This document shows, piece by piece, positions 5,987 through 43,672 of a DNA stretch of 64,000 bases (positions are counted from its first letter, which is position 1; the number at the start of each line of letters is the position of its first letter). The stretch comes from an uncultured Candidatus Saccharibacteria bacterium (GTDB lineage Bacteria; Patescibacteriota; Saccharimonadia; Saccharimonadales; JAGQNJ01), in NCBI GenBank assembly GCA_964577565.1, contig CAZNZL010000001.1, forward strand, positions 398,566 to 462,565, given 5' to 3'. The position numbers and the translations under genes are program-made. The notes under the pieces are model-generated. The model saw nothing but the letters and a program-made list of their open reading frames with translations. It searched no databases and was not told the origin of the DNA.

Positions 5987-6193
5987 CTTGCTGCCTATTG
6001 TACTGGCTTATTAAATATTGTCTACTGTTAATTTGCTTGGTTACAAGGCATGAGCTTCGTTGATCATTGCCTCGCCAGGTTGAAGATCAATTTCGTCGGG
6101 CACTATTTCTGTCATAGCCTCGATAACTGCGTCATGAGGGTCTCGGTAATTTTCGGTTTAATTGAGAGGAAAGTTCGCTTGAAGGGTCGCTGG

Positions 6194-6239
6194 GCGGGGG
6201 TGGGCTTGATACTAAAGTACCAAAATTCACCACCCCCGC
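6194..6239. repeat. GC-rich inverted repeat / long-loop hairpin directly after the cassette B stop
   Basis: GCGGGGGTGG (6194-6203) and CCACCCCCGC (6230-6239) form a perfect 10-bp stem with a 26-nt AT-rich loop and no U-run. It starts 7 nt after the stop at 6247-6249. Confidence 0.5.
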
Positions 6240-7914: not shown

Positions 7915-8898
7915 TTATCGGGTTTGTTCCCAGGTAAACTCGGAGTGACCAAAGTGACCCCACCGGGCAGTAGCCTCGTAACCAGACCTCAGAAGTTCAA
8001 GCCACTCGATAATGCCATTGGGCGAAAGGTCATAGCCGCTAACGGTTTGCGGCTTGCCATCAATGATGACGCTAGCCTCAAGCGGCTGATCATGGCCAAT
8101 TGCATAGGCCAGCCGGCAAAAAACCTCGTTAGCTTTGTGTTTTTGTAGGTAATCTATGGCAATTTTACGAGCGGCATAGGCAGCAGAACGGTCAACCTTG
8201 CTTGGATCTTTGCCGCTAAAACAACCGCCGCCAATTGGAATGCGCGGCCCATAATTATCGACCACCAATTTACGACCGGTTAAGCCAGTATCGGCATCAA
8301 AACCGCCCACCTCCCAATCGCCTGCTGGATTTATGTGAAGCTTTGGGCTTGTGCCGGTTGTAGCGAGCGGCTCTTGTTGTAGCCAGGCCGATACTCTCTC
8401 TTGTAAATCTGGTTGTGAGGCGTGCTGAAAACTGGCAACGATAGACTCTATTAAACTACCGCGCAACGTTACCTGTGTTTTGCCGTCATGCGGCCACTCA
8501 TCATAGAGGTATTGATTAAGCTTACGGCTTAATACCACCTCGAGCGGCAACAGCTCTGGCGTCTCGTTGCACGCATAGCCAACCATAATGCCTTGGTCGC
8601 CTGCTCCGCCGGTATCGACGCCTTGGGCAATCTCGGGGCTTTGTTTAACCAAACGAACCTCAACCTCAACCTTGCCGGCTAGGCGTGTCACGATTGGCTC
8701 AACCGCAACCTTTGCGTTTGAGGTAACTTCTCCGACAACAAAGACTTTACCGTGGCCACCAACCGCCTCAACCGCTACCCGGGCAGCCGGATCCTGAGAA
8801 AGATAGGCATCTAAAATTGCATCTGAGATTTGATCGCATAGTTTATCTGGATGCTTTGGCGAGACGCTCTCAGCTGATTTATATTGCTTTGCAGACAT
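7915..8898 (-). CDS. metK: S-adenosylmethionine synthetase
   Basis: SVSPKHPDKLCDQISDAILD, GAGDQGIMVGYA and GGGCFSGKDPSKVDRSAAY motifs. The true start is ATG 8898 (AAAGGAG RBS). The track's upstream 69 codons are the riboswitch. Confidence 0.9.
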   Translation of the reverse strand: MSAKQYKSAESVSPKHPDKLCDQISDAILDAYLSQDPAARVAVEAVGGHGKVFVVGEVTSNAKVAVEPIVTRLAGKVEVEVRLVKQSPEIAQGVDTGGAGDQGIMVGYACNETPELLPLEVVLSRKLNQYLYDEWPHDGKTQVTLRGSLIESIVASFQHASQPDLQERVSAWLQQEPLATTGTSPKLHINPAGDWEVGGFDADTGLTGRKLVVDNYGPRIPIGGGCFSGKDPSKVDRSAAYAARKIAIDYLQKHKANEVFCRLAYAIGHDQPLEASVIIDGKPQTVSGYDLSPNGIIEWLELLRSGYEATARWGHFGHSEFTWEQTR

Positions 8899-9061
8899 AA
8901 AAAAACTCCTTTCTATCTGCCGCCGCGTAATCGGAGAAAAAGGAGCTTGGAACTCTGCTATCTTCCCCGCGTGCGGGCTGAATGTAGCACCAACATCCGT
9001 TACAAAACGGACAGGTTGCTGGTGGGTCGTAGGGTCAGTTCCCTCACCACACTCTTGATAG
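8899..9061 (-). promoter_or_regulatory. SAM-I (S-box) riboswitch with a terminator / SD-sequestering hairpin
   Basis: The minus strand reads CTATCAAGAGTGTGGTGAGGGAACTGACCCTACGACCCACCAGCAACC..TGGTGCTACATTCAGCC..GAAGATAG, which matches the S-box core. It is followed by CTCCTTT..AAAGGAG and U7 abutting the ATG. Confidence 0.85.
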
Positions 9062-9081
9062 GTTACATTGTTAACGTTTGT

Positions 9082-9110
9082 AGTATAGCGCAAACCTAGC
9101 AACAAACCAA
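9082..9110 (-). promoter_or_regulatory. candidate metK/riboswitch promoter (TTGGTT-17 nt-TATACT)
   Basis: On the minus strand, -35 is at 9110-9105 and -10 at 9087-9082, about 20 nt upstream of the aptamer P1. Confidence 0.45.
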
Positions 9111-18412: not shown

Positions 18413-18928
18413 CTACACCTTACCGGTACTAAGCATATTCATTATCACATACGCAATAGCTGCCACGATAACAATGATACAAATAACTATAAGAGTACCT
18501 TTAATAATGCCGGGGCCGGCCTTGTGTTTTATGGGAAGTTGGTAGGCTTTGCTCTCAATTAGTTGTTTTACGTGATCATCAGCTGGCGCTTCTTTCTTTT
18601 GCGTCAATGGCGGCTCTTGCATGTCTTCTTCGAAGCTTGACACAACCTCGGGCTTGCTTGGTTCAGGGTCGACACCAGGTGCCGCCGGCTCAACTGCGTT
18701 TTCTGGATTTATAGTAGTTTCTTCTGCTTGCGAGGTAGGTGGTGTTATGTTGATTTTTGAATGCTGGGTAAGCGTAGGAGCTGCTTTATCTGAATCGGCA
18801 TCTTCGTCGCGAACCATCGGGTCTTTTACTAAATCCGACCGGCCAACAATAACCGGCCGTGACGTATGGCTAACCGGCTTTTTACCGGGGGGAGACACAT
18901 CAAATGGTTTACGCCCGTCAGTCATCAC
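18413..18928 (-). CDS. hypothetical protein with a C-terminal transmembrane anchor
   Basis: Low-complexity Pro/Glu-rich body, with IKGTLIVICIIVIVAAIAYVIMNML at the C-terminus. Confidence 0.5.
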   Translation of the reverse strand: MMTDGRKPFDVSPPGKKPVSHTSRPVIVGRSDLVKDPMVRDEDADSDKAAPTLTQHSKINITPPTSQAEETTINPENAVEPAAPGVDPEPSKPEVVSSFEEDMQEPPLTQKKEAPADDHVKQLIESKAYQLPIKHKAGPGIIKGTLIVICIIVIVAAIAYVIMNMLSTGKV

Positions 18929-26625: not shown

Positions 26626-27246
26626 ATTAACCTCCTTAAAGGTAATGTTCTTTAACAAAATGTAAACCTTATTCTTGCCGCTCTAATTGTTAAAGACCAA
26701 AACTGTAGAGGCACCTATGCTTGAGCATAGACCCCACCTCACAGTCGTGCTTTATATTACCATTTCAATTACACTTTGTCAATATTATGGTTATGCTTTC
26801 TTCTAGATTGTTAAAGGACTTGATCTACCTCTTGGCTTACAAGAGATAAGTCAAATCATTACAATCCACAATCATGCTTATTTTGGGTTTAGCGGGGGCA
26901 TTCTTTAGGTTTAGTCAATAAAGACTAACTTTTAAGAATGCCCACGCGGGTTAACTATGTACGCGAACCGGTAAAGGCTCAAGCGTTTCAACACATATGT
27001 TGGTTTTTGCTGCATGACTGCAAGCGGGTTTTACCAACAACCAGTTGACGAGTTTGCGAGCAAGTAGCTCAAGCGAAAGTCGCCAACATGCGAATGGTGG
27101 TGGGTTTGTCTAAGCGTTGCCACTTAGTTAATAGCCGTGAGGCTAACCAGGTCCACCAAACCTACCTCGGTTTTCCTACGCAAGAGGAGAGGAAGGGAGC
27201 GTAGGTGAGCTCACGAGGCATTGCTCGAAATTACCGACCAGAACCG

Positions 27247-28401
27247 TCAGAAGCTCCCGGGCGGGGGCGGTGGCGGATTGGTGGTCGGCGGTGCCGTGGT
27301 TGGCGGAGCCGGCGGTGGCGCAACCGTGGTTGGCGGCGTCGTGGTGTTGGTCGGACCATGTCCACTGTCGCCTCGACCGGGCGGTTCGCCTGGCCTGGGT
27401 CGCGGCTGCGGTGCCGGTTCGGGCGCATCAGGAGGCCTGATGACCGTCGGCGGCGTCGGGATGACCGGACGGACTCGCTCGTCGGGGTGGTCACGATCGG
27501 AGCTCACCGGCGACTTGCGATGGTCCTTGCCACCTCGCGGCTTGTCCGGCTGGTCCGGCTTCGGCTTCTCCACGTCGGGAGGTGCCTCGTCCGTCGGACC
27601 TTCCGGCGCAACGGGAGCAGGGGTCACGGGGTTGCCGCAGCGCTTCATGACGCCATGACGACCGATCTCCTTGCCCGTCGCATCGACGAAGATGACCATC
27701 CAACCTTCGGTGTTACCCGTGGGAGGCCGACCGCTGGTGGGAGTGCCGTTGCTGACACCCGTGTTCCCCCAGCCATCCGGCATGGATGGTGCATCCTCGA
27801 TCCGCGTCGCCCTCCAAAGCACGGACCACTCCTGGTACTTCTGCATCCCCTCCTCGGAGTAGCAGACACCGTTCTTGACGACTCCTCCCTCAACGAGAGA
27901 TTCGACGTTGTCGATTGGTGACGTTTCTCCCAAGGGAGACGCGGTGTAGTACAAGAACAGACCACGCGGGTCATGCGAGTTGAAGTCCAGGATCTCCTGG
28001 CGCATCTCCTCACTGGTGGGTGCCTGCACACCGCCGGAGAGAACCCGGTTCTTCTGGTTCTCGTCCAGACGAGTGACGAAGGCGTCGCCGCACTGGGCCG
28101 GAGCCGAGGTCGACGTGCTGGTGGTGGACTCGGCCGGAGCCTCGCCGCAACCACGCAGCTGACGCAGGATGCGCCTGAGCTCACGGACTCGCTCCTTTGC
28201 CTGCTCCTCGTCGGGTGTTCCCTCCGATTCACGGACGTCGGCGCGAGCCGTGGCGAGCTCTTCCTCCGTGTTGGCGATCGCCGCGCTCAGGTCTTCGACC
28301 CGGTCGCAGTCGACCTCCGCCTGGGCGTCCGCGTCGTCGACGCAGCTGCTCAGACCCACCGCCATGAGGAGGGCGGCGAGGGTTACCAACAGTCGCTTCA
28401 T
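27247..28401 (-). CDS. GC-rich lipoprotein with a Pro-rich C-terminal tail (cassette C, gene 2)
   Basis: Lipobox signal peptide MKRLLVTLAALLMAVGLSSC and a GAGGAGG RBS. Sampled lines are 70-72% GC. The tail reads PPTTVAPPPAPPTTAPPTTNPPPPPP. No domain recognised. Confidence 0.65.
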   Translation of the reverse strand: MKRLLVTLAALLMAVGLSSCVDDADAQAEVDCDRVEDLSAAIANTEEELATARADVRESEGTPDEEQAKERVRELRRILRQLRGCGEAPAESTTSTSTSAPAQCGDAFVTRLDENQKNRVLSGGVQAPTSEEMRQEILDFNSHDPRGLFLYYTASPLGETSPIDNVESLVEGGVVKNGVCYSEEGMQKYQEWSVLWRATRIEDAPSMPDGWGNTGVSNGTPTSGRPPTGNTEGWMVIFVDATGKEIGRHGVMKRCGNPVTPAPVAPEGPTDEAPPDVEKPKPDQPDKPRGGKDHRKSPVSSDRDHPDERVRPVIPTPPTVIRPPDAPEPAPQPRPRPGEPPGRGDSGHGPTNTTTPPTTVAPPPAPPTTAPPTTNPPPPPPGSF

Positions 28402-28579
28402 GAGAATTACCTCCTCGTGGCGACTATTTGCTCAATTCGGATGGTCCGAGGCTGAGCTGGGGTACCTCCCAACTTGACGTAGAGATTGGACTCTAGAGAA
28501 TTTACTATCAGCGTTGCTAGGCGCGGCTGATTGTCGGACTGGTTACCGCCACTTTCTCAAGTGGAATGAGGCGTGAACC

Positions 28580-29089
28580 TCAAGTCGTGGGTGCAGCCAC
28601 GGTACCCGGCGGAGGTGGCGGAGCCACGTTCTGACCCGGGGGAGGTGGGGGCGGAGCCATGTGCGGATGCGGGTGCCAACCGGGCGCTTGGGGCGCTGGT
28701 TGTGCAGCCTGCAGACGCTGTCTCCAGGTGTGGGTGTTCTCGGTGTCCAGGATCGTGAGGACCCAGAGGACAACCAAGATCGCGATGCAGCCGGCGATGA
28801 TGCCGATCTGCAACCACGCGATGCCTTCCAACAACTCCATGCCCCACAACGCGGCAGCGAAGCCCAAGCCGAAGCTGAGCAACACCTTCCACGATGAGGG
28901 TCGAACGATCCCCCACACCAGCAGCGCGACTGAAACCACGCCAAGGATGAGGAGCGACACGCTCTGCCACGGATGATCGCTGACACGATCTCGAAGCTCA
29001 GGAGTGTACCACCAGTAGGTGACCAAGTACCCCGTCACCACGATGGTGACGATGAAGAACACCGACTTACGCACGATGTTGTTACCCAT
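28580..29089 (-). CDS. GC-rich 4-TM membrane protein with a Pro-rich tail (cassette C, gene 1)
   Basis: GGGAGG RBS and four hydrophobic segments. The tail reads HPHPHMAPPPPPPGQNVAPPPPPG. Confidence 0.6.
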   Translation of the reverse strand: MGNNIVRKSVFFIVTIVVTGYLVTYWWYTPELRDRVSDHPWQSVSLLILGVVSVALLVWGIVRPSSWKVLLSFGLGFAAALWGMELLEGIAWLQIGIIAGCIAILVVLWVLTILDTENTHTWRQRLQAAQPAPQAPGWHPHPHMAPPPPPPGQNVAPPPPPGTVAAPTT

Positions 29090-29846
29090 GATGACCTCCC
29101 TTCCCCAATGCGGGAAAGTAAGCAGTCCCGAGGATTTCTCGAAACAGGCTGATCTCCCACATGGTAAGGAGCAGCGCGGCAGCCATCAAGTTATTTGATC
29201 GCTCTCGCGCCACTCCTTAGCACAAATTCCACACCAGCAAACCTGCCAGCTAGCAATGCTAGCCGCACCGTTTGCTTCTTGGTTATTTTTGACTCACCTC
29301 TTCCGGTACTCCTGCAACATATTGCTATACGTCTTAGTCTGTTCCTCAGAGCTTCATCAAAACTAACTCAAGCGTGTAATGTGCGCATGGAAAGGAAGCA
29401 CATGTTGTGTTAGTGTTGAATGTTACATAGTTGCTCTGCTCAATCAGGGAGATATTGCTACCTCTACCCGAGAGCAAACCGCCTATTACTAGTATTACCC
29501 TGTTTTATACCAAATTATGACAATATATTGATATGGTTTGTTAGCTAGTATTAGATGGCTTGCCCTCAAGTACACTCCTGACAAACAGATTACTAAATAT
29601 CTGATTACACTGATGTAGTGCGGTGTAATGCGAGGAGCGAACGAGGCACGCCCAGAGACGTATAAATAATACGGCGAGGACGTACCGGAGTTCAGCGACA
29701 AAGCAGAACACCGTAAAGCAGAAATGGTGTTTCACCTATGGTGAAAACATATTTCTGCGATAGATCAGTGTAAAAATGAACTGTAATGATCTGACTTGTT
29801 AAATTGCATCCAACCTTACAAACTGGGGTCGCATGATAAAAGACGG

Positions 29847-29981
29847 CAAAAAACAACAGATAACCTCTGTTGCTTCTCATTCCACCTCTGTTAAAAGTTT
29901 AGCGTCCCGTTACGGATGTACACTCACCTCACATCTGTAATTGGATGTTTACATACTATCACATTTAGGCATAATAGTCAA
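29847..29981 (-). ncRNA. candidate ~100-nt sRNA (promoter + terminator), or alternatively the leader/5' part of a 62-aa hydrophobic ORF
   Basis: On the minus strand, TTGACT (29981-29976)-17 nt-TAGTAT (29958-29953). About 90 nt later comes CAACAGA-ggtta-TCTGTTG (29872-29854) followed by U6. Confidence 0.3.
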
Positions 29982-30040
29982 GTATATGCATAAGCTTTTT
30001 TAGCTTTGTCAACCCTCTTTGGAGTAGTGTTACTTGACAC

Positions 30041-30070
30041 TACCAACAAAGCACTCCGGTCAGGAGTGCT
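30041..30070 (-). terminator. terminator hairpin after the 105-aa gene
   Basis: AGCACTCC / GGAGTGCT 8-bp stem 24 nt after the stop, with a short T-rich tail (ttgtt). Confidence 0.45.
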
Positions 30071-30093
30071 CTGTTGGTACTGGTACGGGTTGT

Positions 30094-30411
30094 TTAAATA
30101 CTTCTTTCTAGTATTTTACGTGAGGTTTCTTTAGCCTCTGCTTTAAGCTTGTCTAGCTCTTCTACGGCTATTTGCTGATAATTTGGCACGTTATCTTTAA
30201 GCCATTGCGCTGCCTCTTGATCTTTGCCGTTTTTTACAAGCTCTTCAAAGGCTTTCAGCTTTTCTGGGCCTACTTCTTTGACCATACGCATGCCCATGCG
30301 TAATTCCAGCGCTTGATATATGCGCCCAAGCATTGCGTCTTTATCGGCGTCGCTAAATTTATCTAGCCCAAGCTCTTTCAGCAAACTGTCATCTAATTTT
30401 ATTTGTGCCAT
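30094..30411 (-). CDS. small helical hypothetical protein (105 aa)
   Basis: Track ORF with a helical, Lys/Glu-rich sequence. It resembles small conserved CPR proteins, but I cannot name the family with confidence. Confidence 0.6.
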   Translation of the reverse strand: MAQIKLDDSLLKELGLDKFSDADKDAMLGRIYQALELRMGMRMVKEVGPEKLKAFEELVKNGKDQEAAQWLKDNVPNYQQIAVEELDKLKAEAKETSRKILERSI

Positions 30412-30427
30412 AGTCTCACCCTTTCTT

Positions 30428-31489
30428 TTATACCGTTTGTGGCGCTACGTTAAGTTGACTCATAACCTGATCTACGCTGTTGCCTTGCTTGACGAGATCA
30501 AGAATTCTATCGGCATTATTGACCGTCCAGTTATTGCCAAAACCTTCGGTAGCCGAGAGCCGCCCAATAACCTGATTGTAGACACGATCTTGTTGCGGGC
30601 TAAGCTGGTCTTTAACGCTCTCCCATATTTGGTCAATACGTGATACGTCTGGGCTTTGAGGTGTGCCTGGCTCAATACTGCCAAAGAACGCATCTGCCCG
30701 CCCTGGTGCGTCAGGGCTTGATCCACGAATACCAATCATTCTGTCAATATTTGGATTGTACTCTGCCTCTGGCCGTGGGCCGCTAACCATCGTAGCGCGG
30801 TCGCCACCGCCTCCTCCAAATATAAAGTTACCTGCTAATGCTCCCAATGCTCCGGCACCGGCGGCTATCGCCATTGAGGTAAGGGCACGGCGATCATTGC
30901 CACGTTTTGTTTCACCAGTTTGGGTTCGCGCCTGACCGGTCATGCCTTCATTCACCGCCTCGGCATAGTCGTGAGCGACATAATTCTGAACAAAGTCGTC
31001 TTCTTCTGCTCTGGTTGCGCTTTCAAGCGCATCGATAATTTGCTGCGCTTCACGGTGGCGTTGTTGTGCTTTAGCCTCAGCAACACCAGCAGCTTCTGCA
31101 TTCCTGCGGACAACGTTACCAACTAAGCCTTTGCTAATTCCGCGCGCCGCCGCAAAGCCGGCACCAGCCGCCAAACCAGCGCCAACTACCGGAGCAGCTA
31201 CAATACCGGCTATACCAACAGCCGCCCCTATTGGTGCGCCAATTGCAGCCATAACCGCACCTTTTTTAACTGTGCCGAAGCTAAATAATTTTGTGCCTTG
31301 TTTGTTCCACCAATCGTAAAAACCTTTTAGTTTTTTAGTTTCCACATTCTGAACTTCAATTTGATATTGGGCTTCTATTAACTTAACGGATTCTTCCATA
31401 GCACCCCAGTGAATGGCACTCACCAGCTCTTGACCAGTAAAGCCATGTGCTCGTAGCAACTCAACGCTGATTCGGCCGGCTTCAGCCAT
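30428..31489 (-). CDS. Gly/Ala-rich membrane-associated protein; N-terminus uncertain
   Basis: Gly/Ala-rich hydrophobic segments (AIGAPIGAAVGIAGIVAAPVVGAGLAAGAGFAAA). The same frame stays open for 67 codons upstream of ATG 31489. Confidence 0.55.
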   Translation of the reverse strand: MAEAGRISVELLRAHGFTGQELVSAIHWGAMEESVKLIEAQYQIEVQNVETKKLKGFYDWWNKQGTKLFSFGTVKKGAVMAAIGAPIGAAVGIAGIVAAPVVGAGLAAGAGFAAARGISKGLVGNVVRRNAEAAGVAEAKAQQRHREAQQIIDALESATRAEEDDFVQNYVAHDYAEAVNEGMTGQARTQTGETKRGNDRRALTSMAIAAGAGALGALAGNFIFGGGGGDRATMVSGPRPEAEYNPNIDRMIGIRGSSPDAPGRADAFFGSIEPGTPQSPDVSRIDQIWESVKDQLSPQQDRVYNQVIGRLSATEGFGNNWTVNNADRILDLVKQGNSVDQVMSQLNVAPQTV

Positions 31490-31636
31490 AGCCTCTTCAT
31501 AGGTCTCAAAAGCGGCTTCTAGCTTTTTCTTACTAAACTTGCGTGAAAAGAACGTGGCACTCTCTTGGCCGGCCCGTAATCTAGCTAGCTCATCGCGGGC
31601 AACCTCTAATACTGCCAGGGCTTCTTCGAGCTCTGG

Positions 31637-31744
31637 CGAGGTAATTCTTTCTTGGTTTTCGGGTTTTTGATGGTGTTCGTGGTTTCCGGGTTAGTGGGTA
31701 TTTTGTGGGTTTTCGGGGTGCTACGGATTCTCTGGGTTTTCGGG
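31637..31744 (-). repeat. 4 x 27-nt degenerate tandem repeat (PENPENP*H / PENPQNTH* / PGNHEHHQK / PENQERITS)
   Basis: The unit starts CCC GAA AAC. Units 1 and 2 carry the in-frame stops TAG (31723-31721) and TAA (31693-31691). Confidence 0.7.
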
Positions 31745-32428
31745 GGGTACCTCAATACCACCACCTGATGACGCTTCTGGAGTTTTACCCCAAAATTCAT
31801 CGTGCGCTTCAGCATGTGCGTCCGCCTCGCTTTTGCCATCTGCTTTTATCTCATCAATGCGTTCTTTGACTGCCTTGCCAATACGCTTTCTTGGGTCTTC
31901 GGGGTTGTCCCAAAAATCCTCTGCGGCTTCATCTTCAGCTGTATCTTTATTTTGGCCAGCCTCTTCACCCTTTTTGACTCGCTTGGTAGTGGCGTCTTTG
32001 ATTTTATCGCTCACTTCTTTTGGAATTTTAATTTCACCGCTTTTATCCGTGCCCGGTGTCTCTTGGCCTGATTTATTAGATTCTTCTGGTGGATTTGTTT
32101 GTTCGCCAGATTTGCCTTTATCTTCTTTAAGATCAAAAGTCCATGGTTCATGGCCCATTGCCGCAATTGGCAAATAATCTGGGTCATTTTCATCCATGAG
32201 CTTCGGCCGCTCTTTAACCATTTTGTCCCACTCACCTTCACCGACAGGACGTAAACCGTGAGTGCTTTCTGTAGCTGCAGGTTCTGGTTTGGGCTGCTCT
32301 TCTGCTACTGTTACGGGTATTCTTTGGCCTTGTGCTTCGACAGCAGCGTCTATCGCCGCCATTTCTTCACCCATAGCGTCAGGACTAGGCACATCTTCTG
32401 GCCGTGGTTGAGGGGCTCGTTCGTTCAT
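31721..32428 (-). CDS. acidic low-complexity protein (235 aa), possibly the N-terminal half of a split gene
   Basis: Track ORF, in the same frame as 30428-31489 ((31723-31489)/3 = 78). Confidence 0.5.
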   Translation of the reverse strand: MNERAPQPRPEDVPSPDAMGEEMAAIDAAVEAQGQRIPVTVAEEQPKPEPAATESTHGLRPVGEGEWDKMVKERPKLMDENDPDYLPIAAMGHEPWTFDLKEDKGKSGEQTNPPEESNKSGQETPGTDKSGEIKIPKEVSDKIKDATTKRVKKGEEAGQNKDTAEDEAAEDFWDNPEDPRKRIGKAVKERIDEIKADGKSEADAHAEAHDEFWGKTPEASSGGGIEVPPENPENP

Positions 32429-32508: not shown

Positions 32509-34713
32509 TTACTTCTTTGAGTTTCTGGCAATACCCTTGAAGTTTTCGGGGAGGAGTTTTTTCTTTTCAAAGCTAAAGCCAAAGGTACTGCCCTTGCCCT
32601 CTTGGCTCTTAAAGATGATTGAGCCGCCTTGCGCTACCACAACTTTTTTGGCCATAAAGAGGCCCAGTCCCGTGCCATCCGGCCGCGCCTTTTTGGCGTT
32701 GTGTGCACGATAAAACTTATTAAACATATGATGCTGTTCGCTCTTTGGTACACCGATGCCGTCATCAGTAACGGCAAATTCGATTGTCTCGCCCTTGTCT
32801 TCTAGCACAACGGCAATATGGCCGCCGCTGGGTGTGTAGTAAATAGCATTATCGGCAAAGTTCATAATGACCTGGCGGATCTTGGTTTCATCAAGCATAA
32901 GGGTAGGAAAGTTCTTTGGCTTATCATAGGTAAGTTCAAGGTTGCGGCCCTTGGCAGTTTCTTTAAGTTGCGCAATTTCACCATCAATAACATTAGCAAG
33001 ATTGGTTTCTTTGGGTTCAATCACAAACTTACCAGTGCGCAAACGCGAGACATTCAACAGATCGGCAATTAAATAAACCATGCGCTGAGAGCTAGTAAAG
33101 GCCTGGTCAAGCAGCTCACTTTGTTTTTTGGTAATTTTGCCGGCATCGCCCTCCATGACCATGCTGACATAGCCTTTTATGCTCGTAAGCGGCGTGCGTA
33201 ACTGGTGTGAGGCCATACTAATGAAGTCATCTTTGGTTTGATCGAGCTCAATGAGCCGCTGGTTAGCAGCACGCAACTTACGCGTCGCATCATCCACTTT
33301 ATCTTGCAGTGTTACGTTAAAATTCTTAATCTCCTCAAACCGCAGCGAGTTTTGAATGGCGATAACCAGTTCGTCAGCGATGATTTCTAAAACCGCTAGG
33401 TCTTGCCGAGCAAACGGACTGCCGCTTTTTTTATTGCCCAGAACAATATAACCAATACCTTCAGCTTTTTGGTTTGGTGTATCAGTTAAACGCACCAAAA
33501 CCGCAATGTCGTTTTTGCGCATGAGGGTTTGAAGGTTTGCTTGCGATTCGTCAAGTTCGTCAGCCACTATGGTTTTAATGCGCATTTTAGGCGTAATAGC
33601 ACGTACCTCGGTAATATCTTCGGGGCTGAATTCTTTATGTGCTGTACCAATAATCCGTTGGGGTGATTTGCCGATTTCTTTTATGCCAAAAATACAAAAC
33701 TCAGTTTTTAGCGTTTCGTTAATAATTTTGGCGCTGTTAGAAAGCAGTTTTTCTAGCTCTATGGTAGAGACCAGTACTTTATTGAGGTTATCAAGGAGCT
33801 CTTGCGTCTCATACGCATCACGGTAAAAGATCTTGTTACTCCACCGGTCAAAAAAGCGCTTAAGTGGTTGAAACGTAAAGGCTAATACTACTGCCAATAA
33901 AGTATACACAAACTGTTGCAACGTACGACTCGAGTTAACATTGGCAAAAATAATTTCAGCCACCGAGAAAGCAAGTAGGCCGTACACAAACGCCAACACC
34001 CCCACCGACAGTAAATAACCTAGTGTTCTTGCTACAACAAGACGTATATCGAATAAGCCGTGTTTGATTACCGCAACACCAATGCTCCCAATAAAGAAGA
34101 TAATTGCAGGACCCGTCGCAAGAATAACGTATTCTGCAAAACGTGAGTTTATCAATACGAAATTTGCAATAAAACTCACAACTAACGAGGCACTGACTCC
34201 AGCGGCAATTAGATTTATTTGTGATTTTTTCTGATAAGTTTGACGAGATTTGTTCAATAGTAGCAATAGGATCCCAGCTAAGATATATGAGGTTGTTATT
34301 AATACTACGGAGGTATAGCCCCATAAAGGATCGACGACATACACTCCAAAGCGACGAAGCTCTATGTCGGTAAAAGTATACAGTGTGAGCGATAAAATCT
34401 GCGCAAAAAATATTGGAATATATAGTAAGGCATTCACGAGTCGACTGCCTTTGTCCAAGAAACTCAAACAAAAAACTACAAAATAGTAAGGCATAAACAT
34501 AGAGAATACTAAGGCGGTACGAAGGAATAATTCTGCGTAAAATTTAGAATTGGTCGTGTCTGACAAGAATAATAGAGTTTGCCATATAAATACAGATCCA
34601 ACTAGAAAAACAAAGATCTTATTGGATTTATTTTTAATACCCGACACCATCATGCCAGCGATAAGAGTAAGCGCAAGAACTAGTCCAGGCAAATATGCTA
34701 GTGTTTGGATCAT
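32509..34713 (-). CDS. sensor histidine kinase with a multi-pass N-terminal membrane domain
   Basis: About 8 TM segments, a GAF-like middle region, H-box SHQLRTPLTSIKGY, N-box NFADNAIYYT, and G-boxes DDGIGV and GTGLGLFMAKKV. Confidence 0.85.
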   Translation of the reverse strand: MIQTLAYLPGLVLALTLIAGMMVSGIKNKSNKIFVFLVGSVFIWQTLLFLSDTTNSKFYAELFLRTALVFSMFMPYYFVVFCLSFLDKGSRLVNALLYIPIFFAQILSLTLYTFTDIELRRFGVYVVDPLWGYTSVVLITTSYILAGILLLLLNKSRQTYQKKSQINLIAAGVSASLVVSFIANFVLINSRFAEYVILATGPAIIFFIGSIGVAVIKHGLFDIRLVVARTLGYLLSVGVLAFVYGLLAFSVAEIIFANVNSSRTLQQFVYTLLAVVLAFTFQPLKRFFDRWSNKIFYRDAYETQELLDNLNKVLVSTIELEKLLSNSAKIINETLKTEFCIFGIKEIGKSPQRIIGTAHKEFSPEDITEVRAITPKMRIKTIVADELDESQANLQTLMRKNDIAVLVRLTDTPNQKAEGIGYIVLGNKKSGSPFARQDLAVLEIIADELVIAIQNSLRFEEIKNFNVTLQDKVDDATRKLRAANQRLIELDQTKDDFISMASHQLRTPLTSIKGYVSMVMEGDAGKITKKQSELLDQAFTSSQRMVYLIADLLNVSRLRTGKFVIEPKETNLANVIDGEIAQLKETAKGRNLELTYDKPKNFPTLMLDETKIRQVIMNFADNAIYYTPSGGHIAVVLEDKGETIEFAVTDDGIGVPKSEQHHMFNKFYRAHNAKKARPDGTGLGLFMAKKVVVAQGGSIIFKSQEGKGSTFGFSFEKKKLLPENFKGIARNSKK

Positions 34714-34783
34714 TATTAGTATTGTAGTTTTTTTTTACTATTTCGTATAGTGAACGACTTATTTAGGGCATAATAATAACCAT

Positions 34784-35704
34784 ATGATCCCTCAATTCCC
34801 TTCATTCGCACCAATTCTTTCTGTCAATCTGGATGCGTATAAAGCATTCACTAATAGATACGAGCCATACTCGGACTTCAATTACACCAGTATAGTTAGC
34901 TGGGATACACAAGAGCAAGCTAGAATAAGTATCCTACATGATAATCTCATCCTTGAAATGAAAGATTACGATACAAGCAACGATAATATTATCTCCATCC
35001 TAGGCGCAACAAAAATCGAACAAACTATAAATCAAATCATTGATCACAAAAACATATCGAACGACGCCCCCTATGGGTTTAAGTTAATCCCTGAGTTTGT
35101 CATTAAGACGATACCACAAACAAAGGCATTTGAAATTCACCACGACATTGATAACGATGACTATATTTTATCTTGCGAAGAAGCAAATGATTTACCGGGC
35201 AAAAAATACATTAACAAACGTAAGAATCTTGCGCGTTTTTTAAGAGACTACCCTCAATGCCGAATTAGTAAGTCAAATCTCGACGACCCTCAAACATGGC
35301 AGAGAATCATAAACTTATGTGAATACTGGGCAAGCCTCGACACAGATGGATCAAAGGCAGGCGATGATGACTTGAAGGCTATTAAGAGACTGTTAGTTTT
35401 AATGCCTAAACTAAAAAATTTGAATATTCAATGCATGAGCATTTATAATAATGATAAGTTTGTTGCCTTTTGTATATACGAAATACTTAATGCCGAATGG
35501 GCAATATCTCATTTTGGAAAAAGCGACATTACAATTCGAAACTTGTATGAGTTTATGATGGTTGAAGTATTGCGTGATCTACATTCCCAAGGTATTAAGT
35601 GGCTTAACTACGAACAGGATTTGGGCATACCCGGACTTCGACAGAATAAACTAAGCTGTAAACCATCTACATTCTTAAAAAAATATATAATCCAGCAAAA
35701 CTAG
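34784..35704 (+). CDS. DUF2156-like protein (MprF C-terminal / GNAT-fold-like), tentative
   Basis: The N-terminal pattern YEPYSDFNYTSIVSWD..ILHDNLILE resembles stand-alone DUF2156 proteins. Assigned from memory only. Confidence 0.45.
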   Translation: MIPQFPSFAPILSVNLDAYKAFTNRYEPYSDFNYTSIVSWDTQEQARISILHDNLILEMKDYDTSNDNIISILGATKIEQTINQIIDHKNISNDAPYGFKLIPEFVIKTIPQTKAFEIHHDIDNDDYILSCEEANDLPGKKYINKRKNLARFLRDYPQCRISKSNLDDPQTWQRIINLCEYWASLDTDGSKAGDDDLKAIKRLLVLMPKLKNLNIQCMSIYNNDKFVAFCIYEILNAEWAISHFGKSDITIRNLYEFMMVEVLRDLHSQGIKWLNYEQDLGIPGLRQNKLSCKPSTFLKKYIIQQN

Positions 35705-36834
35705 CTATGTTCAGGTTTCCTAATAGCATAGTAGCTAAGCTGAGAAGCCGGATGATCTAGTCCCTCAACATGAGCTAAGCCACTATTTTCGATAGCTGCC
35801 TTAACTAAGTGAGGTGTAACATTTTCACTGATTTCATTACACTCAAAAGTCACTATCACCGATGAATTTCTGCGAGCAGTAACAGCTGTAAGTAAGTCCA
35901 CAACATCTGACGCATAATCATTGCCCCTTCTGTTTTTATCAGTAACAATTCCCAAGAATACAAAAATGTTATCGGTAGAGTATGCTTCAGGATGATTTGT
36001 TTCGTAATATTCCTTATCTAGCCAGGGGCATTGATCAAGATCTGTTAAGAACATACATAGTGTAGTGATATCTCCACCTACTCTATTAACTATCTTCACA
36101 ACCGACGGATCACGAAGCAACTCTTTAAAGCTTGGCTCATCATAACCCGCGTTGATCGGATGCTCTTCTGCCAGTTCTGCAAAAGGTTCATCATATAGCT
36201 GCCATAAACTCTCTATTTCATCTTCAGAAACCACATCAATGCAAGAGACGCCATTTATGGAAGCGTCGGGTAGCTCGTTATTTGCCAGCATCCTATTGTA
36301 GGCCTCAAACGTTGATTCGGTTCTTCGAAATTCTTTAGGCTGGCCATCGAACACCACCTCAGCAACATATTGATTTAAATACCTTTCTTGTTCACCTCCG
36401 CCCAAATTTTCAACAACAATTTCAGTATCTTCTGGAAGAATTAATCTAACTTTATCGAGCCGCTCTTGAGGTTTATCTTTATAAGCATCTACAATAACTA
36501 CTCCGCCAGCATTAATTCTTTCTGCAAGAACCTCTCCAATATGTCGCTTCGTCTTTTCCTCTAGTGAAGAATAGTTATAGGGGGGGAAATAAAATGTATC
36601 CAGGGGGCGACCATATGTACGATTAATAAAACTAGAATTAAACCAATCAATGGGGCCAATCGGCACTAGACTCGGCACTTCTTTATTTAAACGTTCATCA
36701 TATATAGATACCGCACCATCATATTCTACCAATTTATCCATCTCGTCTTCAGGCAGTCCAAGCCGTTGTGGATGCAAGTGATCAGTAATTTCAGAAAGGA
36801 CTTCGCTAGAGATTCGTGAAGTATGTTCTGTCAT
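35701..36834 (-). CDS. unknown 377-aa protein translationally coupled to pdaD; C-terminal half GNAT-like (tentative)
   Basis: The ATG overlaps the pdaD TAA (TAATG). FVFLGIVTDKNRRGNDYASDVVDLL resembles the acetyl-CoA-binding segment of GNATs. Confidence 0.5.
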   Translation of the reverse strand: MTEHTSRISSEVLSEITDHLHPQRLGLPEDEMDKLVEYDGAVSIYDERLNKEVPSLVPIGPIDWFNSSFINRTYGRPLDTFYFPPYNYSSLEEKTKRHIGEVLAERINAGGVVIVDAYKDKPQERLDKVRLILPEDTEIVVENLGGGEQERYLNQYVAEVVFDGQPKEFRRTESTFEAYNRMLANNELPDASINGVSCIDVVSEDEIESLWQLYDEPFAELAEEHPINAGYDEPSFKELLRDPSVVKIVNRVGGDITTLCMFLTDLDQCPWLDKEYYETNHPEAYSTDNIFVFLGIVTDKNRRGNDYASDVVDLLTAVTARRNSSVIVTFECNEISENVTPHLVKAAIENSGLAHVEGLDHPASQLSYYAIRKPEHS

Positions 36835-37328
36835 TATATTAGATTAGCACGATTCTGCCAGTCGCTGGCTTGGTATACGGCAACAACCATGGCACATACC
36901 GGTAAGTGCGTACAGGTTTTACCGACAACCTCCATATGTATGGGGCCAAAATCAACATTACGGGTAGCCATGAGTGCCTCAAGGCTTTGCTTGATATCGC
37001 GACGAACGGTTTTTTCACTGTTGCCTTCGTGCTCAACAAACAGACCTTTGCCGGTTGCTTTATCTTGCACCCAGCCAATACCGGCCCATGCCTCTGCATT
37101 GGGCGTATCTACTCGTTGTTCGGCCATTACCACATATAAACGATCACCCCAGTTACCGGGTAAATCTTTAAGCGGTTTGTCAGATACTTGAATCTGTGAC
37201 TCAGGCGGGATAACTGAACTCAGTCGCAACAGATTGTAATTGGCTATGCCCGCATGATTAAGGGCAGCATCAAACGCAGCCAACTTTGTGGGGCCAGAAC
37301 CGATTCCTTTGCTGAGTTTAATAATCAT
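36834..37328 (-). CDS. pdaD: pyruvoyl-dependent arginine decarboxylase
   Basis: GIGSGPTKLAAFDAALNHAGIANYNLLRLSSVIPP, including the Ser-Ser self-cleavage site. Size 164 aa. Confidence 0.82.
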   Translation of the reverse strand: MIIKLSKGIGSGPTKLAAFDAALNHAGIANYNLLRLSSVIPPESQIQVSDKPLKDLPGNWGDRLYVVMAEQRVDTPNAEAWAGIGWVQDKATGKGLFVEHEGNSEKTVRRDIKQSLEALMATRNVDFGPIHMEVVGKTCTHLPVCAMVVAVYQASDWQNRANLI

Positions 37329-37348
37329 AGTTGTTCCTTAAAACGAAA

Positions 37349-37396
37349 AATACTCGTGCAGGGGCGCCTTGGTTAAGGTGTCCACACACGAGTATT
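37349..37396 (-). promoter_or_regulatory. terminator-like leader hairpin between the pdaD promoter and the RBS (candidate attenuator)
   Basis: AATACTCGTG / CACGAGTATT perfect 10-bp stem with a 28-nt loop containing CCTT-aacc-AAGG, followed by TTTTTCGTTTT and then AAGGAA-N6-ATG. Confidence 0.5.
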
Positions 37397-37419
37397 AATC
37401 TTAAAAAGTACTGTTAAGC

Positions 37420-40889: not shown

Positions 40890-42181
40890 AGCCCCTATTA
40901 AAAATCTGCAATATTCAAAACATATACGAGGCTCGTTCAGCTGGTGAGCTTGGCATTCCCTATATTGGCTTACATGTTATTTCAGAAACTGATTATGCTA
41001 ACCTAGATACCATCAAGCGCATCGTCGTCATGATGCACGAAGAATTTCCTATCACAAAAACTATTTTAGTAACAAAAGAAAAAGATATTGAAAAACTAAT
41101 GCATCTCATTGATGAAATTGAGTGTGATGGAGTACAGCTACATTATAAAGTTCAATCAAAACAATTGCTGTTATTGAAATCTCGCTACGGGCAGAAATTC
41201 GTTATCTTTTGTGTTGTCACAGAAGAAGATCAATCGCATAAAACAACAGGTATCGATAAAGCCGATTTCATAATCTTAGATAAAAATTACATTGGCGGCA
41301 CGGGACAACAAATATCACCTCATGTCAGAGAAAAAATCCTTAATACATACAAAACAAATAAACTACTACTTGCAGGTGGTATTGACGCCACCTATTTACG
41401 GAAAGTTGCGCCTGGAATATCAGTCGCCGGTTTTGACATTCAGTCAGGGGTACGAAATGCCAACCGAACTGCTTTTGAAAATATTGAATACGATAAGCTT
41501 AAAGAGATCGTCCAATTATTCGATTACTCTCCAATTCAAACCCAACTCCCCAAAATCGGCTTTTCTGTCTTACCAGATGACAACATTAAGGATTACTATA
41601 ACATTGTGGATTTTTGGCATTTTGACTTTTTTGACGATACCCTTGGGCAGAACTCAAACCTTTCATCCAAACTCACGAGTGTGAAAGATTTCGCATCCAA
41701 AAATACACACTTTTCAATTCAGATACATATTTTTTCAAAATCAAAATCTTACATTTCTCACATTTACCGTAGTCTTGCAGGTCTAAAAACAAAATCAATA
41801 CATTTTTTTGTTCATGTGAATTCGCACTTGCAGCCTGAAATTAATTTTGACTATAATCTTAATATTTATCCCGCAATCGATGTTAAGGATGTCATAGACG
41901 ACGTTATTCCACTGGAAGATTTACTCAAAAGTAAGAAACTTCTTTTATGCCTTCAATCTGAAAAGCATAAAGAAAGAGCCGTTAACGCCGCAATCGCCAT
42001 CAAGCTACTAAAAGCCCTGAAGCCAACCGTTGAAGTAACGCTTGACCGAAGTATTACACCGAGTGACTTGAACTATATAGATGTACGTATTGACAGCATT
42101 ATATCGGGCAAGTATCTAAGAGAATATAAATTGCATGGATATTATGCACTAAAGAAAGGTATAAGACATGAGCTCCAGTAG
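40886..42181 (+). CDS. fusion of a TrpF-like (phosphoribosylanthranilate isomerase) barrel and an RPE-like ribulose-phosphate-binding barrel
   Basis: The N-terminal half reads KICNI..GIPYIGLHV..GVQLH..ILDKNYIGGTGQ..LAGGI..GFDIQSGV, collinear with TrpF. The C-terminal half carries FWHFDFFDDTLGQNSN, resembling the HxD..MDG..N segment of RPE. ATGA overlap upstream. Confidence 0.65.
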   Translation: MKPLLKICNIQNIYEARSAGELGIPYIGLHVISETDYANLDTIKRIVVMMHEEFPITKTILVTKEKDIEKLMHLIDEIECDGVQLHYKVQSKQLLLLKSRYGQKFVIFCVVTEEDQSHKTTGIDKADFIILDKNYIGGTGQQISPHVREKILNTYKTNKLLLAGGIDATYLRKVAPGISVAGFDIQSGVRNANRTAFENIEYDKLKEIVQLFDYSPIQTQLPKIGFSVLPDDNIKDYYNIVDFWHFDFFDDTLGQNSNLSSKLTSVKDFASKNTHFSIQIHIFSKSKSYISHIYRSLAGLKTKSIHFFVHVNSHLQPEINFDYNLNIYPAIDVKDVIDDVIPLEDLLKSKKLLLCLQSEKHKERAVNAAIAIKLLKALKPTVEVTLDRSITPSDLNYIDVRIDSIISGKYLREYKLHGYYALKKGIRHELQ

Positions 42182-43094
42182 GAATCGTCTAGCGGTCATT
42201 GATGTTGGCACACTAAAGTCAAAATTTGAAATTAGGGATTATCAATCACCAAATCGATATAACGTGATCTACAAAGATAAGAAGCTGACTGTATTGGGAA
42301 GAGATTTGCCTAAAACTAATGGTATGATTATCGATTCAGCAATCAAAACCACCATTGAGGCTTTAAATGAATTTAAACTAAAGATGAAAGAACTTGACGT
42401 TAAAAAGCACTTAGCCGTTACAACCGAAGCCGTGCGTAACGCCAAAAACTCCGAGACAGTCCTTAAGCGCATTAAAGATGAGACTGGCCTGGAGCTCAGA
42501 GTTTTATCCCACCAGGACGAGGCTGAGATATTCTTCAAACATATAGCCAATTCGTTTAATAACAAGCGGATTGCTGTTGCAGACATCGGTGGCGGTAGCG
42601 TTCAGGTAGTAGTTGGAAAAGGGTCAACCATAGAGTATGTGCATCTTTTTAAGACCGGAACGTACTTTATGCAAGAAACATTTTTTAAAACTCATAAACC
42701 AGAAAAAAGCGAACTACTAACCGCCAAAGAGTATGTTAAGCAAGAATTTAAAGGTCTTCGACATTTGGGCCTTACAGTAGATGAATTAGTGTATGGCAGT
42801 ACGAACATTATAGACTTCATGAAGGCTGTAGGTATTAAACTGAAAGCGTCTCATTACCCAGACCCCCACCCCTACCGAAGCTACATAAATGAATTAAAAT
42901 CTGTATACGAAAAAATATCCCCTATGCAGTACGAAGACCGCATGGAAATGTTTCCCGAAGAACCTTATTATATGTGGTCAGCCGACAATGCGCTTGTTAA
43001 TATAATTGAGCTAGCAGAAATTTTAAAACTCGATTCAGTTATACCGTCTAATGAGAATATCTCTAGCGGACTTTTTAGGCAGCTTTACCGTTAA
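42168..43094 (+). CDS. Ppx/GppA-family (ASKHA-fold) phosphatase-like protein
   Basis: LAVIDVGTLKSKFEI and VADIGGGSVQVVVG phosphate-binding motifs. 14-nt overlap upstream. Confidence 0.7.
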   Translation: MSSSRNRLAVIDVGTLKSKFEIRDYQSPNRYNVIYKDKKLTVLGRDLPKTNGMIIDSAIKTTIEALNEFKLKMKELDVKKHLAVTTEAVRNAKNSETVLKRIKDETGLELRVLSHQDEAEIFFKHIANSFNNKRIAVADIGGGSVQVVVGKGSTIEYVHLFKTGTYFMQETFFKTHKPEKSELLTAKEYVKQEFKGLRHLGLTVDELVYGSTNIIDFMKAVGIKLKASHYPDPHPYRSYINELKSVYEKISPMQYEDRMEMFPEEPYYMWSADNALVNIIELAEILKLDSVIPSNENISSGLFRQLYR

Positions 43095-43672
43095 TCATCG
43101 TGTAATCGCTTGAACTCCCGAGATATTAAGCTTCTAATGATATCTGCTTTAGTCAGCTCTAATTTTTGACTTAATACTTCTAACTCTTTCAAAGTTGTGG
43201 TCGTTAGCATTACGTTAAAACGTTTCTTTAGTGGCTCGGTCTCTTTCACAAATTCATCTATTTTTGCCCGTAACTCAAACGGGTCTTCATACGTTTTTAT
43301 AGTCACCAGGCCGCTTTTGTTGTGTCGAAGTAGCTCGGGAACGTTATCATAGTGATTTAGCTGTACAAGACAAAGTAATGGTACTTTTTTTTCAATGGCT
43401 AACATTGCCTGAAATATAACCGTTCTAGACTTTTCGCTAAACTCACATACCGCAAACTCTGATTTTGCCAACTGCCGGTGAGAATCTTCGGTTATGGTTG
43501 CTATCTTTGAGGGTAAGATACCCGCTTCGAATGGATAGCCTGCCACCAACCAAGGATCAATAGCTTTACAGCCTTGTTCCTTAAAAAACTTTAATATTTG
43601 TCGATACGTTTGAATGTGTTTGTCGATATTTTTTATCGTTGCAAAGAAAACAAAATTTCGTTTATTACTCAT
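43091..43672 (-). CDS. nucleoside 2-deoxyribosyltransferase/DNPH1-like domain fused to a C-terminal ribbon-helix-helix motif (tentative)
   Basis: FVFFATIKN..GCKAIDPW..AVCEFSEKSRTVIFQAMLAIEKKVPLLCL follows the NDT/Rcl pattern. The C-terminal RFNVMLTTTTLKELEVLSQKLELTKADIIRSLI is CopG/RHH-like. Confidence 0.45.
   Translation of the reverse strand: MSNKRNFVFFATIKNIDKHIQTYRQILKFFKEQGCKAIDPWLVAGYPFEAGILPSKIATITEDSHRQLAKSEFAVCEFSEKSRTVIFQAMLAIEKKVPLLCLVQLNHYDNVPELLRHNKSGLVTIKTYEDPFELRAKIDEFVKETEPLKKRFNVMLTTTTLKELEVLSQKLELTKADIIRSLISREFKRLHDD

Follow-up and report, generated by a model that had tools for sequence, protein, structure and literature searches.

The two open reading frames at positions 30428–32428 of the window, the 64,000-nucleotide stretch of DNA that was analysed, are the halves of one conserved Saccharibacteria membrane-protein gene with an unprogrammed lesion. 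The gene is single, an intact allele of it exists, and the two alleles differ by 17 substitutions, most of them transversions, that lie within 61 nucleotides of a tandem repeat. The patch with its two stop codons is not a programmed feature. It is most likely, at somewhat better than an even chance, a consensus or assembly error at a repeat that is hard to sequence, and we infer that it originated outside the cell.

30428–32428, minus strand: conserved gene, whose 667 codons count two internal stops and the final one; homologues span both halves
31721–32428, minus strand: upstream reading frame of 235 amino acids, ending at the TAG; acidic N-terminal part, predicted to be largely disordered
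30428–31690, minus strand: downstream frame, open for 420 codons past the TAA; predicted helical core and all hydrophobic membrane segments
31721–31723, minus strand: in-frame TAG, which is GAG in the intact allele (comparison with contig L003)
31691–31693, minus strand: in-frame TAA, which is AAC in the intact allele (comparison with contig L003)
31664–31724, no strand assigned: patch of 61 nucleotides with all 17 differences from L003 (pairwise comparison)

The minus-strand frame from 32428 to 30428 has 667 codons, and its sole interruptions are the TAG (31723–31721) and the TAA (31693–31691). This arrangement, which had been described in the original prediction, was re-derived from the window sequence. 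The statement that the 67 sense codons from the TAA to the ATG at 31489 contain no in-frame ATG, GTG or TTG was borne out as well, because the listing of reading frames gives the first start at 31489. The gene caller divided the frame into two proteins, P0010 with 235 residues and P0004 with 353 residues, the latter from the nominal start at ATG 31489. The two products are present on one NCBI contig only, and the gene is the sole split-gene candidate in the 64-kb window. The upstream reading frame carries the conserved motifs DPDYLPIAAMGHEPWTFDLKE and SEADAHAEAHDEFWG.

The gene belongs to a family of uncharacterised membrane proteins of Saccharibacteria and other members of the Candidate Phyla Radiation (CPR). 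The homologue P0001 (664 residues, 67% identity, 100% coverage) spans both halves, as do P0002 (609 residues) and P0003 (656 residues). These three are single reading frames flanked by genes for a histidine kinase and a DUF5663 protein, and the order histidine kinase, gene, DUF5663 is common to the three closest relatives. Both neighbours flank the gene in L001/L002, L006 and L013. In the window they are located as follows.

32509–34713, minus strand: histidine kinase with HisKA_7TM, HisKA and HATPase_c domains (profile match); conserved upstream neighbour
30094–30411, minus strand: DUF5663 gene of 105 amino acids, followed by a hairpin terminator (PF18908, E = 2.6e-20)

The 197 representatives of the family are mostly 550–750 residues long, and none of them is split at the site of the stops except the two reading frames of the window itself. 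The relatives have one reading frame of about 600–740 residues, and in L008 a distant homologue is encoded by one frame of 675 residues. The question of whether orthologues are one reading frame or two is thus answered by a single frame in every relative. Among species-representative genomes, orthologues were found at 67% and 46% only. P0010 and P0004 are best annotated as one gene of about 665 residues from an uncharacterised Saccharibacteria family.

The region between the second stop and the next start is conserved coding sequence, in which ITSPELEEA...FSKKKLEAAFE.YEEA aligns in all homologues. The conserved segment after the stops reads ITSPELEEA...ARxELARLRAGxESATFFSxKFSKKKLEAAFE. The suggestion that this stretch encodes a plausible helical peptide agrees with its presence in all homologues and with a structure prediction in which it is helical at high confidence. 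It was also proposed that the downstream half could be a gene in its own right. The caller output and a GAGG located 2 nucleotides before ATG 31489 are consistent with two truly separate genes, the second starting from ATG 31489 or from a non-canonical start. However, we give this arrangement very little credence: the homologues are all fused, the 67 codons before the ATG are conserved coding sequence, and the methionine at 31489 is not conserved, being replaced by lysine in P0001–P0003 and by valine in P0005. The GAGG lies too close to the ATG to form a good ribosome-binding site, and no promoter-like or terminator-like site was found on the minus strand between the halves.

The predicted architecture of the encoded protein begins with an N-terminal region that is acidic and disordered, followed by a spacer of (Pro-Glu-Asn)x10 and a core of long helices with three membrane segments; the C-terminal domain is small. 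The earlier assignment to a surface or membrane protein holds with respect to the membrane, since hydrophobic segments are located at residues of about 389–428 and 515–539, all in the downstream half. Searches of Pfam and PHROGs gave no match above the family threshold, with HTH_7 at the C-terminus remaining sub-threshold, and a Foldseek comparison with the PDB gave no match with E < 1. An AlphaFold model built from five sequences had a pLDDT of 45.7, which is too low for use. In an AlphaFold model of an orthologue, the equivalent of the linker (residues of about 222–260) is predicted to be disordered, with low pLDDT. A literature search found nothing on DUF5663, on SRP144015, or on its SRR runs.

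The intact allele was identified by comparison with six Logan short-read contigs from the public runs SRR7082966 and SRR7082976. The window is 100.000% identical to these contigs over positions 29776–31746, 32863–37415, and 42131–43976, which together represent 8,370 nucleotides of unique window sequence, except for the 17 substitutions of the patch. The contigs therefore derive from the same clone. The repeat is covered by a single independent contig, L003, which starts at 31746. In L003 the repeat is a clean (PEN)x10 array with neither stop, and all other compared bases are identical. Variants at the two stop codons, as sought in the original prediction, are thus present in independently obtained sequence of this clone, which is free of the lesion. 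The chance that all 17 differences would fall into one such span is about 4e-23.

The two alleles are equal in length, with 17 substitutions and no insertions or deletions, and a gapped alignment of them scores hardly better than an ungapped one. A double frameshift was considered, as the reading frame at 31606–31839 is open across both stops; however, it was rejected because L003 has no indels and the gapped alignment gains almost nothing. The TAG arises from GAG by one change and the TAA from AAC by two. The original prediction had placed the TAG one substitution away from CAC or CAA in other repeat units, which is imprecise, as it differs from these codons by more. Fifteen of the substitutions are transversions; at most two transitions would occur with a probability of 0.044 if substitution were random, and of 0.001 if transitions made up half of the changes. 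Coding constraint is absent from the patch, because only one of the 13 altered codons is silently changed and the other 12 have a new meaning, two of them as stops. Two stops are unremarkable among 17 random changes in the patch (simulated P = 0.10). No source copy of the variant bases was found among nearby 9–14-mers on either strand, and the changes are therefore untemplated. Template switching and gene conversion were rejected, since 9–14-mers with at least two variant bases match only by chance, kilobases away.

Further alleles were sought in several ways. An exact search for the flanks in JGI metagenomes found none, a protein-pattern scan of metagenomes returned distant relatives only, and a further protein search, with a word index, gave the two reading frames of the window alone. 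Exact look-ups of the kinase, of both half-frames, and of the window proteins at 28580–29089, 49070–49594, and 18413–18928 gave no match.

It was also suggested that the stops are read through. Programmed readthrough, suppression, or an altered genetic code would yield the full-length protein, and the frame is open for 420 codons past the second stop, with the downstream sequence intact and conserved. Nevertheless, expression of this kind is highly improbable. TAA and TAG are the main terminators of the window, ending 45 of its 54 long reading frames (TAA 30, TAG 15, TGA 9), whereas neither stop is present in any homologue or in the near-identical contig L003. Suppression would be needed at two different stop codons. 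There is no stable RNA structure around the stops (folding z = -0.57), and the window contains no suppressor tRNA, its tRNAs being tRNA-Glu and tRNA-Lys only.

The patch is located in the repeat that encodes the linker, and the intact repeat contains a telomere-like G-quadruplex (G4) motif.

31655–31744, minus strand: linker repeat of 10 units of 9 nucleotides, encoding (Pro-Glu-Asn)x10 in the intact allele and degenerate in the window
31661–31691, plus strand: canonical, telomere-like G-quadruplex motif site (GGGGTTCTCAGGGTTTTCGGGGTTTTCGGGG), present in the intact allele and lost in the window

The original prediction described a repeat of four 27-nucleotide units. The repeat is real; however, it is better described as 10 units of 9 nucleotides (CCN GAR AAY) with a super-period of 27 nucleotides. 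Tandem Repeats Finder detects a weak signal with a period of 9, 10.2 copies, and 56% matches. The sequence CCCGAAAACC(C/A) occurs at 31744, 31717, and 31663, with five matches against 0.8 expected by chance. Homologues are rich in proline, glutamate, and aspartate at the linker site and differ in length there, those of P0001–P0003 being shorter. The G4 motif is lost in the window allele because each of its four G-tracts contains a G-to-T change, and all five G-to-T changes of the plus strand fall in G-runs. The 64-kb window contains only one other canonical G4 motif, at 6184–6204; the patch overlaps one of the two.

Under the favoured explanation, the telomere-like, G4-forming short tandem repeat would have led to an error of consensus or assembly, and the error would have produced the 61-nucleotide patch of 17 untemplated substitutions, two of which by chance created the TAG and the TAA. 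The real gene of the organism would then be the intact (PEN)x10 version, as in the short-read contig L003. Both L003 and L004 have a contig break at the repeat or close to it (31746 and 31556, respectively). The original prediction had listed sequencing error solely as a way in which it could fail; here, error ranks as the leading explanation. G4 motifs also raise real mutation rates, which counts against an artefact, as does the expectation that a consensus of many reads should not hold 17 coincident errors. The remainder of the contig is flawless, and therefore the assembly is otherwise accurate; this too speaks against error, and the independent evidence over the repeat is the one contig that starts at 31746. 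Illumina, HiFi, and ONT data all show more mismatch errors at G4 motifs (PMC10519405), and in nanopore basecalling G-rich telomere repeats are mistaken for different repeats (PMC9414165). The patch resembles such errors (PMC9414165, PMC10519405) in consisting of substitutions that keep the length and in being confined to a short, G-rich tandem repeat with a canonical G4 motif between flawless flanks. By contrast, G4 motifs increase the Illumina error rate only about 2–3.6-fold (PMC10519405), which is far below the 28% divergence observed here, and 17 changes per 61 nucleotides in a final consensus exceed the published average effects. Unlike the miscalled telomere repeats, the repeat of the window is only 90 nucleotides long. 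In metagenome-assembled genomes that are otherwise perfect, short G-rich tandem repeats can hold densely packed substitution errors that leave the length unchanged, and such errors can mimic split genes or recoding.

The original prediction had a recently split or pseudogenised gene among its options. That there is one gene and that the split is recent are borne out by the single-frame relatives and the otherwise identical intact contig; however, sequence error is now preferred to pseudogenisation. The main rival, which we consider less likely, is that the allele is real and represents a very recent, strain-specific pseudogene generated by a clustered burst of substitutions at the G4-forming repeat in one lineage of an otherwise clonal population. 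The protein would be cut to a soluble fragment of 235 residues, and the membrane part would be untranslated or poorly translated. The deposited 483-kb contig that carries the stops is otherwise free of errors relative to the independent contigs, which favours a real allele, as does the placement of the five plus-strand G-to-T changes in G-runs, with one in each G4 tract. Signatures of guanine oxidation are G-to-T and A-to-C changes. The contigs L011 and L012, which originate from two runs, break at one position, 32863, and this shared break hints at microdiversity near the locus. However, no donor sequence was found in the searches above, the spectrum is far from the natural one, which is rich in transitions, and the split products are confined to one contig. 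The gene resembles a recent nonsense pseudogene of a symbiont with a reduced genome in being a conserved single-copy gene with in-frame stops, in which the remaining frame is intact and the orthologues are uninterrupted. Ordinary pseudogenisation, by contrast, leaves scattered mutations, mostly transitions and indels, whereas the patch has 17 transversion-rich changes in 61 nucleotides. No bacterial process is known to produce 28% untemplated divergence over 61 nucleotides and leave flanks of more than 8 kb unchanged.

The more specific proposal, that in real DNA one burst introduced 17 untemplated substitutions with a bias towards transversions into 61 nucleotides of a GGGGTTTTC-type coding repeat, destroyed the G4 motif, and knocked out the membrane protein, is improbable. 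If true, it would represent localised hypermutation that is linked to DNA structure and is not driven by a diversity-generating retroelement (DGR), in a bacterium with few repair functions. If real, the allele would be an unusually clean case of clustered mutagenesis associated with DNA structure, here in a CPR bacterium.

The least likely origin of the patch is targeted diversification, in which it would be the variable region of a DGR or of a comparable system. DGRs are frequent in CPR bacteria, and the patch is similar to their variable regions in its dense, substitution-only variation over about 60–100 nucleotides, clustered here within about 60, in an AAY-rich segment, a repeat rich in asparagine codons, of a membrane and putative envelope protein. 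However, the 64-kb window contains no second, template copy of the repeat, and the changes are not specific to adenine, as adenine is lacking from both alleles at 6 of the 17 sites; a DGR target was rejected on these two grounds. No reverse transcriptase was found among the 24 window reading frames scanned. The PEN array of the intact allele is clean and constrained in its codons, and it is not randomised. The AAY codon design of DGR targets avoids stops, whereas stops were created in the patch, and the site is predicted to be a disordered linker, unlike a ligand-binding fold.

A contingency locus, in which rearrangement mediated by the repeats acts as an on/off switch of the gene, is very unlikely. 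The gene shares with simple-sequence contingency loci an in-frame tandem repeat inside a membrane-protein gene at the point of interruption, and direct repeats of 10–11 nucleotides flank both stops with in-frame spacing. Unlike at such loci, the unit is 9 nucleotides long, the alleles do not differ in length, and the interruption is due to base substitution. Slippage cannot shift the frame, because the 9-nucleotide unit is a multiple of three; the earlier suggestion of phase variation is contradicted by this and by the two alleles, which are of equal length and differ in point substitutions alone. The searches for further alleles yielded none with a deletion. The length of the linker varies by species, and a shorter linker should therefore be tolerated, in agreement with P0001–P0003. 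An in-frame deletion of 81 nucleotides between the CCCGAAAACC repeats at 31744 and 31663 would remove both stops, and, if the burst of substitutions were real, such a deletion between the flanking 10–11-nucleotide repeats could reverse the knock-out.

The minus strand from 32428 to 30428 translates as a single 667-codon frame with two internal stops, and an ORF finder places ORFs in the same frame on either side of them:

31721-32428, minus strand: upstream ORF, 235 residues
31723-31721, minus strand: in-frame TAG
31693-31691, minus strand: in-frame TAA
30428-31489, minus strand: downstream ORF, 353 residues

Translation and the ORF finder confirm the original prediction that only TAG and TAA break the frame, and that no start precedes ATG 31489, the earliest one possible after TAA, 67 codons further on. 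Other same-frame neighbours in the window are unrelated genes, which leaves this gene as the sole split candidate there.

The two ORFs are one gene. A homologue search using the conceptual fusion of both halves as the query identified three proteins of Candidatus Saccharibacteria, each spanning both halves: P0001 (664 residues, 67% identity, 100% coverage), P0002 (609 residues), and P0003 (656 residues). Their loci share with the window the order of histidine kinase, this gene, and a 105-residue DUF5663 gene; the kinase carries the HisKA_7TM annotation both in the window and at the P0001 loci. A distant homologue adjoining secA is also one ORF, of 675 residues. Searching 1.84 billion representative proteins with a profile (E up to 0.001) yielded 197 family members, mostly 550–750 residues long. 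Lengths of 353 and 235 residues occur only in P0004 and P0010, which match the two ORFs of the window exactly and both come from a single 482,922-nt NCBI contig. The 67 codons between TAA and ATG 31489, expected to encode a helical peptide, specify a helix conserved in homologues (ITSPELEEA...ARxELARLRAGxESATFFSxKFSKKKLEAAFE), whereas the methionine at 31489 is replaced by lysine or valine in relatives. Between the halves, the minus strand has no promoter-like or terminator-like site. The fused relatives, the conserved intervening codons, the variable methionine, and the lack of such a site establish a single gene and argue against the proposal that the downstream half has its own non-canonical start.

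Both stops lie within a repeat, of which CCCGAAAACC(C/A) occurs at 31744, 31717, and 31663, with five matches at one mismatch versus 0.8 expected. The predicted tandem repeat is present; however, its basic unit is 9 nt (CCN GAR AAY, Pro-Glu-Asn), and 27 nt is a super-period. Tandem Repeats Finder detects the array only weakly, with period 9, 10.2 copies, and 56% matches.

Exact look-up of the DUF5663 protein retrieved Logan short-read contigs L003 (run SRR7082966) and L004 (SRR7082976), and further look-ups added L011, L012, L014, and L015 from the same runs. The six contigs together cover 8,370 unique nt of the window (29776-31746, 32863-37415, and 42131-43976) and are 100.000% identical to it, except for 17 positions of L003, all within 31724-31664. 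Under a uniform model, the chance of all 17 differences falling in one 61-nt span of the 1,971-nt alignment is about 4e-23. An intact allele is present in the same clone: the L003 codons (CCC GAA AAC, CCA GAG AAT, CCT GAG AAC, etc.) encode (PEN)x10 followed by QERITSPELEE, without a stop. The L003 units vary among themselves at synonymous sites only, the same variants occur in the window wherever it is unchanged, and homologues have acidic linkers rich in Pro, Glu, and Asp at this position. These features indicate that the L003 repeat is ancestral and under selection, and that the window repeat is derived from it.

The changes are all substitutions, and gapped alignments of the window with L003 improve almost nothing. 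Transversions account for 15 of the 17 and transitions for two (P for two or fewer = 0.044 under random substitution, 0.001 if half of changes are transitions). The coding-strand spectrum is C>A five times, G>C four, A>C three, and T>G, G>T, A>T, A>G, and G>A once each. Only one change is synonymous among 13 altered codons; therefore, the patch shows no coding constraint. In simulations, 17 random substitutions in the patch produced at least two stops in 10% of runs, and the stops are an unremarkable by-product of the patch changes. Template switching or local gene conversion is not supported, because no 9–14-mer bearing at least two variant bases recurs close by on either strand. Diversification by a diversity-generating retroelement is likewise not supported, because the window has no second repeat copy and the changes are not adenine-specific (at six of the 17 sites neither allele has an A).

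Programmed expression, which was among the original proposals, is not supported. Readthrough is disfavoured because TAA and TAG are ordinary terminators here (54 long ORFs end in TAA 30, TAG 15, and TGA nine times), folding of the RNA that spans them is no stronger at the two stops than for shuffled controls (z = -0.57), and all relatives lack stops at this site. The tRNAs in the window are tRNA-Glu and tRNA-Lys only. Phase variation is opposed by the 9-nt unit, slippage of which keeps the frame, and by the equal length of the alleles. Even taken jointly, readthrough, phase variation, a diversity-generating retroelement, and two separate genes are improbable.

On the plus strand, the intact repeat reads (GGTTTTCGG/GGTTCTCAG)n, like ciliate telomeres, and contains a G-quadruplex motif:

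31661-31691, plus strand: canonical G-quadruplex motif GGGGTTCTCAGGGTTTTCGGGGTTTTCGGGG, intact allele

All four G-tracts carry a G-to-T change in the window allele, which does not match the motif any more. The 64 kb hold one other canonical motif, at 6184-6204 on the plus strand, the only one in the window as assembled. G-quadruplex motifs also undergo real mutagenesis; therefore, the coincidence of patch and motif alone cannot separate artefact from biology. Single-nucleotide mismatch errors are raised at such motifs in Illumina, HiFi, and ONT data, about 2–3.6-fold in Illumina (PMC10519405), and G-rich telomere repeats are systematically miscalled by nanopore basecallers (PMC9414165). Two Logan contigs break off at the repeat or close to it (L003 at 31746, L004 at 31556), consistent with a hard-to-assemble locus. 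The stops are part of a 61-nt, substitution-only, transversion-rich, untemplated patch without coding constraint on a G-quadruplex-forming repeat. We know of no cellular process that would leave a 61-nt stretch 28% diverged without a template while more than 8 kb alongside it stays identical, and short G-rich repeats are documented sequencing trouble spots; the most likely origin of the patch is therefore an error of consensus or assembly, a reading we hold with moderate confidence. A real, very recent cluster of inactivating mutations, with which the otherwise flawless contig would agree, is less likely but is the main rival. For annotation the finding is ordinary: the ORFs should be joined or the gene marked as disrupted.

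The protein has no above-threshold Pfam or PHROGs match. The AlphaFold model of the orthologue P0001 (60-sequence alignment, pLDDT 71.6) has a mainly disordered N-terminal region, two short helical modules around a conserved AHDEFWG motif, a disordered linker spanning roughly residues 222–260 that is the counterpart of the PEN repeat, long helices bundled with confidence from about residue 260 to 535, and a small helical C-terminal domain. Foldseek found no match in the PDB at E below 1. By hydrophobicity, the membrane segments of the window protein lie at about residues 389–428 and 515–539, so that every one follows the stops. Its conserved neighbours, a 7TM sensor kinase and DUF5663, hint at a possible envelope-associated role.

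Some Logan contigs from the two independent runs have the same or nearly the same ends: L011 and L012 both stop exactly at 32863, and L003 and L004 end 7 nt or less apart (29776 and 29783). No 18-mer at these ends is repeated in the window, which points to branching between strains of the population or to sequence common to another genome.

Downstream of the DUF5663 gene lies a conserved non-coding element (29776-29981, minus strand), with copies in the orthologous loci L001 (9783-9966) and L006 (3776-3993). Its nucleotide identity is 91.5% to a species whose neighbouring proteins are 67–84% identical, and 72% to a more distant one. After a promoter-like TTGACT-17-TAGTAT come the invariant blocks CATCCGTAAxGGGACG and TTTTAACAGAGGTGGA, a terminator-like hairpin (29879-29847), and then an invariant TTTAACAAGTCAGATCATTACAGTTCAT. 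The element matches no Rfam family and may represent a new small RNA or a riboswitch-like leader in Saccharibacteria. Nearby, positions 27200-29200 form a two-gene island of 60–73% GC in a 44.7% GC genome:

27247-28401: proline-rich putative lipoprotein, 384 residues
28580-29089: membrane protein with a proline-rich tail, 169 residues

Both proteins lack Pfam matches. The orthologous locus L001 also contains the island, with a GC content just as high and a lipoprotein of 84% identity; therefore, the island is old and conserved, not a recent insertion. The sole strong tandem repeat of the window (27281-27345, period 15, 4.3 copies) encodes part of the proline-rich tail of the lipoprotein. A SAM (S-box) riboswitch (8955-9064, minus strand, 58.8 bits) sits inside ORF 7915-9105, a mechanical call, at its 5' end, and the true start of that gene must therefore be downstream of the riboswitch.
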